Shown here piece after piece: positions 11,395 through 55,125 of a DNA stretch of 64,000 nucleotides (position 1 is its first letter; every line of letters starts with the position of its first letter). Source of the stretch: Octopus sinensis (lineage: Eukaryota); the NCBI RefSeq assembly GCF_006345805.1, contig NC_042999.1, positions 103,478,001 through 103,542,000 on the forward strand. The letters are read 5' to 3'. The position numbers and the translations under genes are program-made. The notes under the pieces are model-generated. The model did no database searches and was not told where the DNA came from. It saw only the letters and a program-made list of their open reading frames with translations.

Positions 11395-11582
11395 TGATAG
11401 ATCGCTAACTACTACACATTCTTTATTTCTCTCCTTAGATCTTTCTGTCTTCTTTTCTGTGGAAGAGCGTAGGCTCGAAACGTTAAAGATTTTTTTTACT
11501 TCCCGAGCGTTATACAAATACATCTGTTTGTTGTCTACACCACCTGTCTTCGTCTTTTTTTTTTTTGCGAATTCTCCCTATA
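11395..11582 (+). mobile_element. ~190-bp repeat carrying a hammerhead-like motif (family H1), copy 1
   Basis: Shares GAAGAGCGTAGGCTCGAAACGT.AAAGA…CTTCCCGAGCGTT…CTGTCTTCGTC with 14767-14962 and 54095-54289. The 3' end runs into a TA-rich repeat. Confidence 0.8.
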
Positions 11583-11869
11583 TGTGTATGTATATATATA
11601 TATGTCAAATTCCTTTAGTGTACGAACAACATAGACAACTTGTTGGTCAGCAGAAAATACTTATATTTCAAAAGTTAGCAAACTAAATTGTAATGTTTCA
11701 CCTGAAGAAAAACAATTTGCGGAATTTTCTGAATACAAATGTACAAATGGTGTCGAGATTTGTACTTATCTCCAGGCGAAACATCTTTAAGATTTTAGTA
11801 AATTTTTATATAAAACTATACAAAACCACATACTTTCATGCATGTTTGCGCATGTACCGACACAAAAAC

Positions 11870-13460
11870 GCATATGCACACACACACACACACGCACACA
11901 CACACACACACATACATACAAACACACACACACACACACACACACACACATATATATATACATGTATACATAAATATATACATATAATATTATATATATT
12001 GTATATATACATATATACATATATACATGTATACACATACACGCACGAACGCATACCTACTCGCACAAACACACACACATACATTACATATACATATATA
12101 GAAACGTATATGGAAGTGTTATGACTTGTATAATAAGCTATAGTTGCAATTTTTCATGCCTTTCTCACACGAGTGTGCGCGCACCCATGTACACATGCAG
12201 ATCTATCTGTATTTTCTGCCTTATGTGTCTATACCTTTCGATGCTTATGGTAAGTGCAACATTGGACAGTTGCAGCAGCTAAAGATTTAACCATATTCTC
12301 ACAATGCAATCAAAAACTGAAGAATACTAGGATTAGAAGAATCACGTAAAAGCGTCTTCAAAATAGTCGAGTATTTTTTAATATGCTCTTGATAATCCAT
12401 ACACATAACTTCGAGGTACTCTGGCTTATAAATCACTTTCTTTATGTCACTCTTCTCTTGCGGAGTGTATGTATCTATTTCTTTTTCTGTCCGTCTCTCT
12501 TCCTCTCTTTCACCATTCCTTCTGTTCTTTCTCCTCGCTTCTCTCTCTCTTTCTCTCTCTCTCTCTATCTCTCACATACACACACACACACACACATTTC
12601 TCTATTTAATTAACGTGTTTCAGTGGAACAAAATTCAAGCTATGCTTATCTATATTTTACTTTATTTTGCAAGCTATGCTTATCGGGTCTTTTTGCAGGT
12701 TTCTACTGTTTGTGCGTTAATATAGACGTCTTGTGCGCCTCACTGTGAGTGCATCTACATACGCATGAATGTGTATGTATTCACGCGTATGTAACCATAT
12801 GTATCTATATCTGTACGTGTACGTGTATATGTGTATGTAATTACGCATATGTATCTGAGAATATACATACATACATATATATATATATATATGTATATGT
12901 ATGCATATATATATATATATATACATACATACACACATATATATATTTATATATATATATATATACATACATACACACACACACACATATATATTTATAT
13001 TTATATACATATATATATATATATATATATATATATATATATACATACACAGATATATATTTATATATATATATATATACATACATACACACACACATAT
13101 ATATTTATATTTATATACATATATATATATATATATATATATATATATATATAATATACATACACAGATATATATATTTATATATATAATATATACACAC
13201 ATACATACACACATATATATATTTATATATATATATATACACACATACACACACACATATATATTTATTTATATATATATATATACATGCACACACGCAC
13301 TCATATATATATATATACACACATATATATCTTTATATATATATATATATATGTGTGTGTGTGTGTAAAGATATAGACACACAGATGAATATATATTTAT
13401 TGATATAGTATGTATGTGTAAATGTATATGTATATATATGCATATATCCATGTATATGTG
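11870..13460. repeat. Large compound (CA)/(TA)/(CT) microsatellite fields (11870-12110, 12530-12600, 12750-13460)
   Basis: Directly visible; source of the YI/HT/CV-rich spurious ORFs. Confidence 0.9.
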
Positions 13461-14766
13461 ATTTCTTCTATAGTAATTTATCGAGTAAGAGACAGAGAAT
13501 GTTATAACTATTTGAAACCGCATCTTACTAAGTTCAGGGAATGATTTTATGTGAGTTATCTATCTGCTAGAAACATCAACTAAATCTCTATGAAATCAGA
13601 TACTGCTATTTTAAAAATAGTTGAAAGTATCAACTAATGAATGTTGTCAGAACAAAAGACAGGGTGGTCTCAGTTAGAATGCTATGAATCGAGAATAATT
13701 TTAGGATAAGCTACAATATCAACATAACACGGTAAAAGTTTAGCTGTAATCGTTAAGCATTTGACTAAATAGCTGTTATTGTTGAGTTTCAAGCCATCCC
13801 CGATTCTGCAATGATAAAAGCCACTTACGTCGTGACTACATCGCTACTCTTACTAGTATATTATCCAACGAGTTCTCCCTTTTTAAAGAAGTAAATTTAC
13901 CTACTAATATTAGTAACTCGTATGACTATGTAACAACTCTTTCATTGGCTCTTTTGTCCTTCACTGTTTGATAAAATAAGTACCAATTGTCTTAGAAAAG
14001 ATATATTCAAATGTAGTCTCCTGCACCAAGTATGTGGCCATAATATGCACAAATCCTGGCCATTACAGAATAGCAAGAGATACAACTTCAGCAATTTGAC
14101 TTCAAAAGCTATTTTCCTTTCTCTTATAAAGAAAATTCTTTCCACTTACGTATTGACGGTGTTCAGAAGTGGATGACTATCATTAAGTTCACCACATTCG
14201 CATTTATGTAATACAGATCATCGTACTGTCCTACATATACTTACTGTTATCAAGGCTTTAATATGCTATCCGCTGCACTGTAACTGTTTATTTTTCCTTT
14301 TATTTTAAAGGAAATTCTTCACCATTGAGGTTTAAATTATATGTTGGAAAATGTTTTACCCACTGCATTCACTGGCGCTCGGAGGCCATATTTTCTATGT
14401 TGATTAAATTCTATGATGATCAATCCGTTGAAGCTAGAAGTAATGTACTAAAATCTTTGCTTCCTAATACAACAGATTTGAAATTCTTCCAAGGATGACT
14501 TTTCCTTAATATCAATTTAATCATAAGCATTTTTGGATAGGATTATTTTCTTAAAGAAAGAAAAGTATTCTTTGAAATAATTTCATACTTGTTATTCCCA
14601 GGTCTGTCCTATTCGAGTTCACTTGTAATCAACGTCGTTTCAGTTAGGATCCACTAGTCTTCGTTTTTTAAGAGATGCGCACACGCAAACACATATTTAC
14701 AAACATATAATTATATATGTAGACATTTATATGCATCTATGTATAGATATACATACACAAATTATA

Positions 14767-14962
14767 TGACTGACTGCTTGCCACTAAAGCTTTTTTAAAT
14801 TCTCTCTCTGTTTATTTTCCTGTGTTCCTTTCTGCTGAAGAGCGTAGGCTCGAAACGTAAAAGACTTTCTCACCTTCCCAAGCGTCAAACTAATATACAT
14901 GTTTGTTGTTTACACACCTGTCTTCGCCTTTTGTTTTTTTGTTTTGCTGTAAATTCCAACTA
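14767..14962 (+). mobile_element. Family H1 hammerhead-like repeat, copy 2, followed by (TA)n 14963-15036
   Basis: CCTTTCTGCTGAAGAGCGTAGGCTCGAAACGTAAAAGAC at 14827-14865 plus the shared downstream sequence. Confidence 0.8.
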
Positions 14963-53059: not shown

Positions 53060-53510
53060 AGGTGGTGAGCTAGCAGAATCATTAATTCTTCGGACAAAAT
53101 GCTTTGCTTAGCAGCATTCCTTCATGCTCCTTACACTCTGAGTTCAAATTCCGACGTGTACCTATACCATTAACCCTGAAATGGTTTGGTAGAATGGGCA
53201 CCAATTGAGCACTGGCCTCGATGTCATCAACTATTCCTCTCCCACGAAAGTTCCAGCCGTATGCGCAGAGTAAAATTGATTGCTATTATTATTATCGCAA
53301 GGTATTTTGTCCGAAGTGGGAATGTCGGAAAAAATGCTTTCCAGTGTTGCTTCCGAATCTTTACGTTCTAAATTGAAAACGTAAAGACCAACTTTATCTT
53401 TCCTCCTTTCGGAGTGACAAAATAAAGTATCAGTGATATATAGACCTCGGCGGTTTCCACTAAACGTTTGTCTCTCAAAATTCCAGACCTTGTGCTTATT
53501 GTGCAGACCA
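53060..53510 (+). mobile_element. Two diverged SINE family A copies
   Basis: GGTGGTGAGCTAGCAGAATC…GAGTTCAAATTCCG; CTTTCCTCCTTTCGGAGTGACAAAATAAAGTA…AAATTCCAGACCTTGTGC. Confidence 0.7.
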
Positions 53511-54094
53511 TTATTATTAATTACATGATTTGGCATAAATCCGTCCTTATTGGCAAAATCCCACAACTTTGTACCTCAATCATTGATAAACTGATCTTCT
53601 TTACCAAATCTGGCACTACGGCATAACGTTTGTGTGATAACATTTTGATATGTTATCGTTATGTCTTTGGTAAAGGGTATTTTTTTAATTATTTTATTCC
53701 ATTGGCCTCATTCATTGAACTGCTGCCAATGTCAGCCGCCTCCTTTGAAGAGATAGACGACTCATCGATACCACAACATATTTCAATCTAATATTTATTA
53801 CATTGATCTCTTACAGTCGACCTGCAATGCCGCTGGACATAAAAAGCAATACATAAACAGGCCTGTTTTTTTATTTGTTATATGGATAAAAACATAAAAT
53901 ACAGACACACAGGTATACACTTGTCGTCCCACATACACACACGTGCTTGTGCGCCTTAGTTCATCGGGGCCACCGTTATTATTATTATTATTATTATTAT
54001 TATTATTATTATTATTATTATTATTATGATGATGATGATCATCATCATCATCCTCTTTCATTCAGTCTCTCTCTTCCAGCCATTTCAGTATGTT

Positions 54095-54289
54095 GAACCG
54101 TTAGTCTCTACCCATTTTTGTCTCTCTGTTTTTTTTCATTCTTTCTCCGTTCCCTGCCTCTTAATCCTTTCTGCCGAAGAGCGTAGGCTCGAAACGTAAA
54201 AGACTTTATTCTTCCCGAGCGTTAAACTAATACACTTGCTTGTTGTTCCTACATCTGTCTTCGTCCTTTGTTTTCTGTAAATTTGAACT
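54095..54289 (+). mobile_element. Family H1 hammerhead-like repeat, copy 3, followed by (TA)n
   Basis: CCTTTCTGCCGAAGAGCGTAGGCTCGAAACGTAAAAGAC at 54166-54204 plus the shared 3' sequence. Confidence 0.8.
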
Positions 54290-54339
54290 ATATATATATA
54301 TATATATATATATATATATATATATATATATATATATAC

Positions 54340-55125
54340 ATATTAGAAAGAATGTGATAACAAAATCAAGGCTGTGATGAGTTTTCGGGACATTTATAAG
54401 GAAATAGTCTTACAGCTGTTTCTGGGATATTATGGATATCCTTTCATCAGAGACGGTGTGAGAAGGTTAAATTAACGAAATACTTGAGTTCGAATTATTA
54501 TGGAAAGGGAGAAAGGGAGTAGATGGGGAATATAGAGTGAAATAAGAGAATGAAAGTAGGAATAAGATATATAAGATATTGTATTCCTTTATTCGAGGAA
54601 AATGGTGTATAGAAATCGCAAAAAGGTTTCCTATACATGGTATGTAAGCCGTGGAATCTGTGTTGCTCGTTCGAAAGGGTTTTGTGGTGTGAATGAAAAT
54701 TTAAGAATGTATTGGTAGTATTTATGGATTGATGGGGGGGAGGAGATATGTGTATTATACCCATATACAAATACATACATACACAAAATACATGAACACA
54801 CATTTACACACACTCAAGTATCCGTTTGTATGTCCATATATGTAGTTTTAAATGATTGTGATCCTTAGAGTAAGATAGGTGAGTTAAAAAATTAAAGATT
54901 AATAATTAAACTGGAGATAAGTAGGGTTGTTGGAGATTACCTAAGGGGTGTTGTGGATATATACTGTGTGGTTATTTAGGCTAAATTTAGATTTGTGGTA
55001 AAATTTGAAGGTGTGAAAAAAGCGGTAGTTGCATGTACTTAGGGCCTCATTATATTTATTTAGAAGTGTTGAGGAGTTGTGTTTTAATATGTGGAATGCC
55101 TCTTTAAGTAATTCTTCAATTTATT
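54340..55125 (-). mobile_element. 3' end of a second Penelope-like element
   Basis: Minus strand 55120-55020 reads LLKEAFHILKHNSSTLLNKYNEALSTC (PLE C-terminus, E..HI….LLNK..E..S.C). Hammerhead downstream; ends at (TA)n. Confidence 0.65.
54407..54454 (-). ncRNA. Minimal type I hammerhead ribozyme motif (canonical core)
   Basis: GUCU-CUGAUGA-AAGGAUAU-CCAUA-AUAUCCCA-GAAA-CAGCUG-UA-AGAC. Perfect stem I, stem II GGAUAU/AUAUCC, palindromic stem III ACAGCUGU, GUA triplet. Confidence 0.78.

Follow-up and report, generated by a model that had tools for sequence, protein, structure and literature searches.

Hammerhead-bearing insertions at the locus

A 64,000-nucleotide stretch of the Octopus sinensis genome (NC_042999.1, positions 103,478,001 to 103,542,000; hereafter the window) carries a dozen hammerhead-type ribozyme motifs close to TA-rich microsatellites. 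The window has a GC content of 35% and contains many microsatellites along with decayed LINE-type and mariner-type elements; the host genome measures 2.72 Gb. All 12 motifs reported in an initial annotation, and all seven palindromes named for their stem III, were located at the positions given. We interpret them as minimal type I hammerheads residing in the terminal repeats of Penelope-like elements (PLEs) and of non-coding tandem units, which PLE enzymes likely inserted into existing TA-rich DNA (a probability of roughly 0.8). Because the motifs at 44575 and 44637 sit on two arms of one insertion, the 12 motifs represent 11 insertions. At least six unrelated families had been claimed, and eight high-copy families (H1 to H7 and Hy) were found.

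Three insertions on the plus strand belong to H1. The copy at 11390..11585 is a decayed 3′ end of a Neptune/Nematis-type PLE, with the core CUGUGGA at 11457 and a predicted cut after position 11484. The copy at 14765..14963 is intact by the standard of its family: its core, CUGCUGA (an A6 variant), begins at 14832, the predicted cut is after 14859, an extra A precedes stem II (GAGC/GCUC), stem III is ACGU, and the 3′ end lies on (TA)36. The third copy (54090..54288; core CUGCCGA at 54171, predicted cut after 54198) has a TA array (54289-54343) in common with an H6 copy on the minus strand (54341..54758), the two elements approaching it from opposite sides. This H6 copy carries the core CUGAUGA at 54450, a stem III of ACAGCUGU, a predicted cut after 54411, and a 7-bp stem II with an unpaired A on each side.

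The H7 element (21492..21690, minus strand) is a two-armed mini-insertion that joins a hammerhead arm to an inverted long-tail arm, with TA flanks on both sides. Its core is CUGAAGA at 21578 and its predicted cut is after 21528. The motif listed at 21523 had been considered weak; this holds for the window copy, whose stem III is decayed, and not for its family, which has a canonical core and a near-palindromic ACUCGGAGU. The H2 element (24600..25166, plus strand) is a relic of a non-coding, circularly permuted unit of ∼443 bp of the retrozyme type. An inverted arm (24600-24810) is followed by the core CUGAAGA at 24820, with a stem III of AUCAUAUGAU, a predicted cut after 24867, and a broken stem I.

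A decayed H3 copy (30687..30987, plus strand) has a short 3′ end on (TA)6. Its core, CUGACAA at 30862, breaks the pair between positions 3 and 8, and the family majority is UUGAAAA. That this copy (motif at 30859) might represent a C3–G8 subfamily was ruled out, as its relatives have U3–A8. Adjoining it upstream (30095-30571, plus strand) is another fragment of a Hydra-like reverse transcriptase (RT), with 34% identity to the Hy protein and no link to the hammerhead.

The remaining insertions, from H3, H4, H5, and Hy, form a nest within 2.8 kb that includes TA arrays at 44318-44470 and 44712-44769. The two-armed H3 insertion (43123..43391, minus strand) has the core UUGAAAA (U3–A8) at 43249, the stem III AAUU, and a predicted cut after 43219; its hammerhead arm bears a short end and its inverted arm (43270-43391) a long end. 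Next to it is a relic of a non-coding, circularly permuted H4 unit of ∼360 bp (43431..43637, minus strand; AUGAUAA at 43627, stem III ACUAGU, predicted cut after 43597). The H5 insertion (44471..44716) carries one hammerhead on each arm, with the core CCGACGA (U4C) and predicted cuts after 44581 (minus strand) and 44673 (plus strand); its long end is at 44471 and its short end near 44712. Finally, a 5′-truncated copy of Hy, a young autonomous Hydra-clade PLE, occupies 44768..45886 on the minus strand. It consists of an endonuclease fragment (45533-45889), the 3′ untranslated region, and a hammerhead with the core CUGAAGA at 44911, a long stem II, the stem III ACACGUGU, and a predicted cut after 44838, followed by a short end; (TA)n lies on both sides.

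The cores had been described as CUGANGA or a close variant. An exact match in register is present in four of the 12 (24820, 44831, 54407, and 21523), and the others are family variants or decayed. About five of the 12 window copies match their own family and look intact from their sequences (14828, 54167, 43214, 44831, and 54407); the rest are broken in the core or the stems. The TA-rich microsatellites had been placed 60–250 nt away. Measured from the cut site to (TA)4, the distance is actually ∼30 to 290 nt, and the association is weak at 43592.

Frequency of the motifs relative to shuffled sequence

Matches to hammerhead descriptors were compared with those in 40 local dinucleotide shuffles of the window. 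A strict descriptor (exact CUGANGA, palindromic stem III, and a stem I of at least 3 bp) matches three loci, compared to 0.1 in the shuffles (maximum 2). With one core mismatch allowed, nine loci match, compared to 1.9 (maximum 5). The excess is absent when two core mismatches are allowed (14 loci compared to 7.3, maximum 17), and loose matching is therefore not evidence for a hammerhead. Thus, the excess that had been proposed as a check holds under the two stricter descriptors and is lost under the loosest. A further descriptor gave five matches compared to 0.37, but its cores were picked after the families had been inspected, and it is not counted as an independent test. Two one-mismatch matches, at 6715 (minus strand) and 47959 (plus strand), lie inside other common repeats and are probably due to chance.

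A covariance-model check had also been suggested, and it failed to recover the motifs: the Rfam hammerhead families have no match at E values up to 10, where only microsatellite and hairpin noise was reported (for one search, among the best 150 of 280 matches).

Family consensus and structure

For each element, a family set was assembled by searching the genome and keeping up to 30 of the best-scoring copies, including the window copy. The first-look candidates, which are not copy numbers, amount to 4161 for H1, 1930 for Hy, 2642 for H6, 1040 and 1472 for H3, 1400 for H4, 2428 for H5, 227 for H2, and 3166 for H7. The family majorities restore cores and stems that are broken in the window copies, yielding minimal type I hammerheads of the published kind. 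The core is canonical in the majorities of Hy, H2, H6, and H7. Those of H3 and H4 pair U3 with A8 (the H4 family core is UUGAUAA), a compensated pair published for PLE hammerheads (PMC4209133; here and below, publications are cited from the available part of their text). In the H1 family, position 6 is U or C and the GAGC/GCUC stem is preceded by an additional A; an H1-related copy in locus L252 has a canonical core in the same register. The H5 family has C at position 4, with a decay pattern like that of an ancestral CpG; this U4C change is common to H5 and to a family of 546-bp units described below. Both A6C and U4C have been reported to be natural hammerhead variants of low activity (PMC3088659).

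Pairing in the stems is extensive. In H4 and H7, 94.8% and 90.1% of stem cells are paired, compared to 27%–57% when the register is slid. Stems I and II of H4 contain double-sided changes in seven cells, a value reached by none of 500 shuffles, and three of the five measures computed for H4 lie above all 500 (the alignment holds 29 of the 30 copies; the copy in L153 was excluded because it is anchored on another element). Of the two families counted, H4 shows an apparent signal of stem covariation and H7 does not. Folding as a dimer is predicted to lower the energy in nine of nine example hammerheads (by 2.0–13.1 kcal/mol), and in seven of them the intermolecular stem III is clean. About 10 further hammerhead families occur in the 1.09 Mb of loci retrieved, nearly all with a palindromic stem III and some with a very long stem II or U3–A8 (loci L065, L083, L093, L096, L138, L153, L199, L243, L256, L257, L003, L009, and L035).

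Six families are 3′ ends of coding PLEs

Judged by what lies upstream of the hammerheads, six families are identified as truncated 3′ ends of coding PLEs: Hy, H5, H6, and H7 of the Hydra clade, and H1 and H3 of a type that we take to be Neptune or Nematis. The picture of a single system of small elements is not supported as worded, because six of the eight families continue upstream into PLE RT or endonuclease coding sequence.

Hy is young, with 97%–100% identity over 37 near-full matches. Full copies consist of 3642-bp tandem units plus an inverted arm, and an open frame of 863 residues is present in L062. This single frame encodes an RT and a C-terminal endonuclease with the pattern CxxC..E..N..CxH, as well as DKT and RW motifs. 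We assign Hy to the Hydra clade because its DKT motif and endonuclease end match the available description of that clade (PMC8557442). Pfam searches of the Hy protein matched neither the RT nor the GIY-YIG domain. A CxCX5C linker occurs in L352, where it lies upstream of H6, and also in L253, and was not seen in the Hy frame. Longer H5 and H6 copies reach Hydra-type endonuclease ends upstream, and a sister of the H7 hammerhead lies directly 3′ of a Hydra endonuclease in L198 and L253. The sequence upstream of H3 encodes an RT and a Cys linker and weakly matches GIY-YIG (E values of 0.0009–0.002, below the Pfam cut-off); upstream of H1 are a Cys linker and the start of an endonuclease in a broken frame. 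A Cys linker ahead of a C-terminal GIY-YIG domain with two cysteines is the arrangement expected of the Neptune/Nematis type. The families show the tandem and inverted arrangement, one-sided tail, and hammerhead near the 3′ end that are expected of PLEs, and close inverted arms are nearly absent from H1.

Sequences like Hy also turn up under other organism names. Between 68% and 92% of sampled words from the window copy (44775-45880) are common to public runs carrying six organism labels, and one contig under another label has only three differences in ∼1010 bases, which could reflect a close relationship between the sources, a relabelled run, or horizontal transfer. Contigs of guessed RNA origin under other organism labels also contain pieces of Hy and the 546-bp unit; neither RNA ends nor circles could be read from them, and the two runs with the label organism A gave no coverage of either sequence.

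Non-coding tandem units

We classify H2 and H4 as non-coding, circularly permuted units of the retrozyme type because their downstream tails continue into their own upstream sequence, with periods of ∼443 bp (near this value in five of 23 copies) and ∼360 bp (four of 30). The tandems of both families are partial.

Another case is the 546-bp family, one of the further hammerhead families mentioned above, which is represented just outside the window. A young two-armed array (L066:3898-7684, 2.3–6.1 kb to the left of the window start) has arms of 5.3 and 1.65 units on opposite strands and is bordered by TA at each end; an older two-armed relic lies at L066:490-1062. The unit is non-coding (its longest frame has 92 codons) and contains one hammerhead, with the core CCGAUGA and the stem III ACGUACGU. 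Units are arranged in direct tandem, in arms of up to 12 full units. The search returned 1414 candidates, and the listed copies are 94%–100% identical.

We examined 21 arrays, a nonrandom sample in which long ones were chosen. Sixteen are two-armed; 15 of these pair an end at +193–199 with one at +296 (positions downstream from the cut site), and the sixteenth is interrupted. The 21 arrays have 15 haplotypes. Fixation throughout the units of an array is seen for 41 array-by-site variants, and 28 of these are fixed on both arms. Frequent variants that are private to an array and yet present in every unit would be expected from rolling-circle copying, and suggest that a single unit, most simply a circle, was the template.

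Paired short and long ends

Two classes of 3′ end occur downstream from the cut site: at +59–70 and +217–222 in Hy, at +87–105 and +145–158 in H3, mainly at +176 and +227 in H4, and at the two sites given above in the 546-bp family. Of 57 head-to-head, two-armed insertions, 54 have a short end on one arm and a long end on the other. This total comprises 10/10 for Hy (6/6 at the first loci and 4/4 in longer stretches), 15/15 distinct loci for H3 (16 rows, one locus appearing twice), 14/17 for H4, and 15/15 intact arrays of the 546-bp family. H5 and H7 were left out because the queries biased them, and they agree with the pairing (a short inverted arm in 18 of 28 H5 copies and a long inverted arm in 28 of 30 H7 copies).

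The arms of a Hy insertion have the same alleles at 40 polymorphic sites, despite the existence of several haplotypes. An origin of the two arms from two different source loci is unsupported, since arms share haplotypes in both Hy and the 546-bp family. All arms that reach the cut site read through it. In H1, 20 of 30 copies begin 88–101 nt upstream of the cut site.

Association with TA repeats

Among genome copies, (TA)4 is present at the 3′ end in 29 of 30 for Hy, 21/28 for H6, 21/29 for H7, 17/26 for H5, 19/30 and 12/30 for H3, 18/30 for H1, 6/16 for H2, and 9/30 for H4. The background is 6% at random positions and 21% at positions after any TA. By the latter, stricter value, the docking of H4 and H2 is only slightly over background. 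TA is also found at 5′ junctions: in the window Hy copy, in 14 of 30 H1 copies, and in all four single-armed retrozyme arrays.

It had been left undecided whether the elements target (TA)n or generate it. After merging, 28 of the 39 TA arrays in the window contact no identified end, although unrecognized families may adjoin some of them. Together with TA at 5′ junctions, these free arrays favor the interpretation that the elements target existing (TA)n and mostly do not make it; generation is for the most part unsupported. H6 is a partial exception. In its long form, the element contains an internal (TA)n whose length varies and which is located at the short end site, in 10 of 30 loci (L069, L070, L074, L079, L081, L083, L086, L087, L093, and L072), which suggests that long-arm insertions deposit a TA microsatellite.

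Two further elements in the window are a frameshifted non-LTR retrotransposon with an RVT_1 domain (33885-37143, minus strand) and a remnant of a mariner-type transposase (Transposase_1; 27462-28490, minus strand).

A model for insertion and its alternatives

The best explanation for these patterns is that the hammerheads belong to the terminal repeats of six coding PLE families and two families of non-coding tandem units, and that PLE enzymes likely inserted all of them into existing TA-rich DNA. The initial proposal of diverse, high-copy, minimal type I hammerheads of the PLE and retrozyme kind docked on (TA)n is supported in this form. Family identity, the two end sites, TA docking, head-to-head arms, and shared haplotypes can be read directly from the DNA; the steps that might produce them are as follows. 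A PLE endonuclease would cut a (TA)n tract on both strands. The two DNA ends would then each prime reverse transcription at their own fixed RNA site past the hammerhead, through a TA match of 1–6 nt, and the two cDNAs would be joined at their truncated ends. The template was presumably uncut or re-ligated at the hammerhead, because every arm extending to the cut site passes through it. The palindromic stem III would pair two hammerheads, such that cutting needs a tandem RNA and releases a unit-length RNA able to circularize. For non-coding units, repeated laps around a monomer could give uniform multi-unit arrays. Solo copies of ∼190 nt probably result from copying that begins within the leading repeat and runs out at the front end of the transcript.

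A single rule might cover all PLE clades, in which an asymmetric enzyme pair primes the cut (TA)n ends at two different fixed positions of RNA that comes from one source, and circles made by the hammerhead act as rolling templates that yield a dozen-unit array in one event. We put this broader formulation forward tentatively, at a little under even odds.

Several observations weigh against our interpretation. Cleavage, the RNA ends, and circular RNA are predicted from DNA, and the RNA source consists of contigs of guessed origin. In the available report on a PLE studied in vitro, hammerhead mutants left insertion unaffected, and no RNA-seq read ends fell at the cut site (PMC11167929). The changes fixed in H1 (A6 to U or C) and in H5 and the 546-bp family (U4C) are those of reported low activity (PMC3088659). 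Covariation in H7 does not exceed that in shuffles (171 of 500), and relatedness among copies can lift a score over the shuffle control even where structure is lacking. H7 is linked to coding sequence indirectly, through a sister family, and an apparent link between H2 and Hydra elements in L190 and L252 was ruled out, as TA arrays and other repeats intervene. The non-coding families and the 546-bp family show no sequence similarity to coding PLE ends, and their driver is presumed. Three H4 insertions (L129, L132, and L138) depart from the short–long pairing. Eight array-by-site variants are mixed within 546-bp arrays; among them, at unit position 212 in L318, is a G-to-A change present in five non-adjacent units of one arm, which counts against array uniformity.

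A different route to the same structures is copying from linear, uncut multi-unit transcripts, with the hammerhead serving mainly as an RNA-pairing or protein-binding structure and circles playing no part. Read-through of the cut site in all arms, the weakening core changes in several successful families, and the dispensability of cleavage in vitro (PMC11167929) would all be expected from this mechanism, and uniform daughter arrays would follow if the source array was itself uniform. Even so, we judge it rather unlikely. The fixation of private variants in every unit of both arms, together with the number of haplotypes (15 among the 21 arrays), requires that copying often passes through a single unit, and two families keep the compensated U3–A8 pair, which is described as important for catalysis (PMC4209133; PMC3088659).

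Retrozyme arrays could instead grow locally after insertion by unequal crossover and conversion, as is favored in the available text of a recent preprint (bioRxiv 10.64898/2026.07.22.740005), or their uniformity could be an effect of assembly. Local amplification of a single unit also yields uniform arrays, and indel noise in the assembly is evident from frameshifts in L061. However, the two inverted arms often both contain several units, have private variants in common, and terminate precisely on TA at the two family sites. Moreover, polishing toward a genome-wide majority should erase private alleles and not create them. We therefore consider either version improbable.

Creation of (TA)n by the elements themselves, through telomerase-like repeat addition, would fit the relationship of PLE RTs to telomerase (PMC8557442), the near-universal (TA)4 at young Hy ends, and the internal repeats of H6. 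It is quite improbable as a general account, given that TA is also found at unprimed 5′ junctions, that H4 mostly inserted outside arrays, and that most window arrays contact no identified end. Finally, a chance origin of the motifs within AT-rich repeats is barely credible: the loss of excess at two core mismatches and the silence of Rfam are compatible with chance, but the strict descriptors exceed shuffles, eight unrelated families all carry the motif shortly upstream of the 3′ end, and the idea is already contradicted by the H4 stem changes and by family majorities that are nearer the canonical fold than the window copies.

Comparison with known systems

Much of this system is in print: palindromic stem III in PLE hammerheads, U3–A8, the targeting of (TA)n by Hydra elements, one-sided tails, and PLE-driven retrozymes. 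The available account of hammerheads in PLE pseudo-LTRs (Cervera and de la Pena 2014; PMC4209133) already describes a short stem I, an extra base before stem II, a palindromic or absent loop 3, and U3–A8 covariation, together with opposite-strand pairs 100–700 bp apart, many divergent families per genome, and mostly solo truncated copies. The octopus elements differ from this account in having palindromes of 8–10 nt in several families, family-wide fixation of A6-to-U/C and U4C, the very long stem II of Hy, and the H6 stem II, which is flanked by an unpaired A on either side.

Hydra-clade PLEs (Craig et al. 2021; PMC8557442) are likewise described with a C-terminal endonuclease that lacks CCHH and has CxxC and CxH around E and N, with DKT and RW motifs, a hammerhead, (TA)n targets, tandem plus inverted copies, and a tail at one end. 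Hy has a longer unit (3.64 kb, whereas those elements are generally under 3 kb) and a long, low-complexity linker in which, unlike in the published elements, CxCX5C was not seen. Tails measure 50–150 nt here and 30–40 nt in that description, which places the tail “often at one end,” whereas we count a strict short/long pairing.

The Poseidon PLE of the green anole, as studied in vitro (Frangieh et al. 2024; PMC11167929), resembles the octopus elements in that both strands are cut and extended, targets are AT-rich, the RNA template is uncut, and internal initiation at two sites past the hammerhead defines the tail. The ends found here lie in non-coding sequence at short TA matches, with one site per genomic arm, whereas the two Poseidon strands are described as alike.

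Metazoan non-LTR retrozymes (PMC7229834; bioRxiv 10.64898/2026.07.22.740005) are also non-coding tandem units of a few hundred bases, with low GC content and one type I hammerhead each. PLEs have been proposed as their drivers, and circles as templates for tandem cDNA (same sources). In contrast to them, the octopus units have minimal palindromic hammerheads in place of canonical ones, a 546-bp unit, and the PLE footprint of two arms, two end sites, and TA docking. The words “inverted” and “microsatellite” are absent from the available text of PMC7229834. Our literature search turned up no description of the strict short/long rule or of array-private fixation, with supplements and one paper on dimeric PLE hammerhead variants outside its coverage. 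What is added here is the pairing of short and long arms, the shared arm haplotypes, and the array-private fixation.

Implications

Some 12 motifs in 64 kb that were missed by Rfam reveal the extent of unannotated PLE debris in such genomes. How PLEs build inverted, tailed insertions, and whether they mobilize retrozymes from circular RNA, are open questions in the available literature (PMC11167929; PMC7229834; bioRxiv 10.64898/2026.07.22.740005). These questions can be tested in vitro with what this genome provides: a Hydra element that is young and retains an open frame, a non-coding partner family that is likewise young, and predictions, to the base, of the start site for each arm. From the pairing of insertion ends, copying likely proceeds from both sides of a cut TA repeat, a mechanism that is itself testable.

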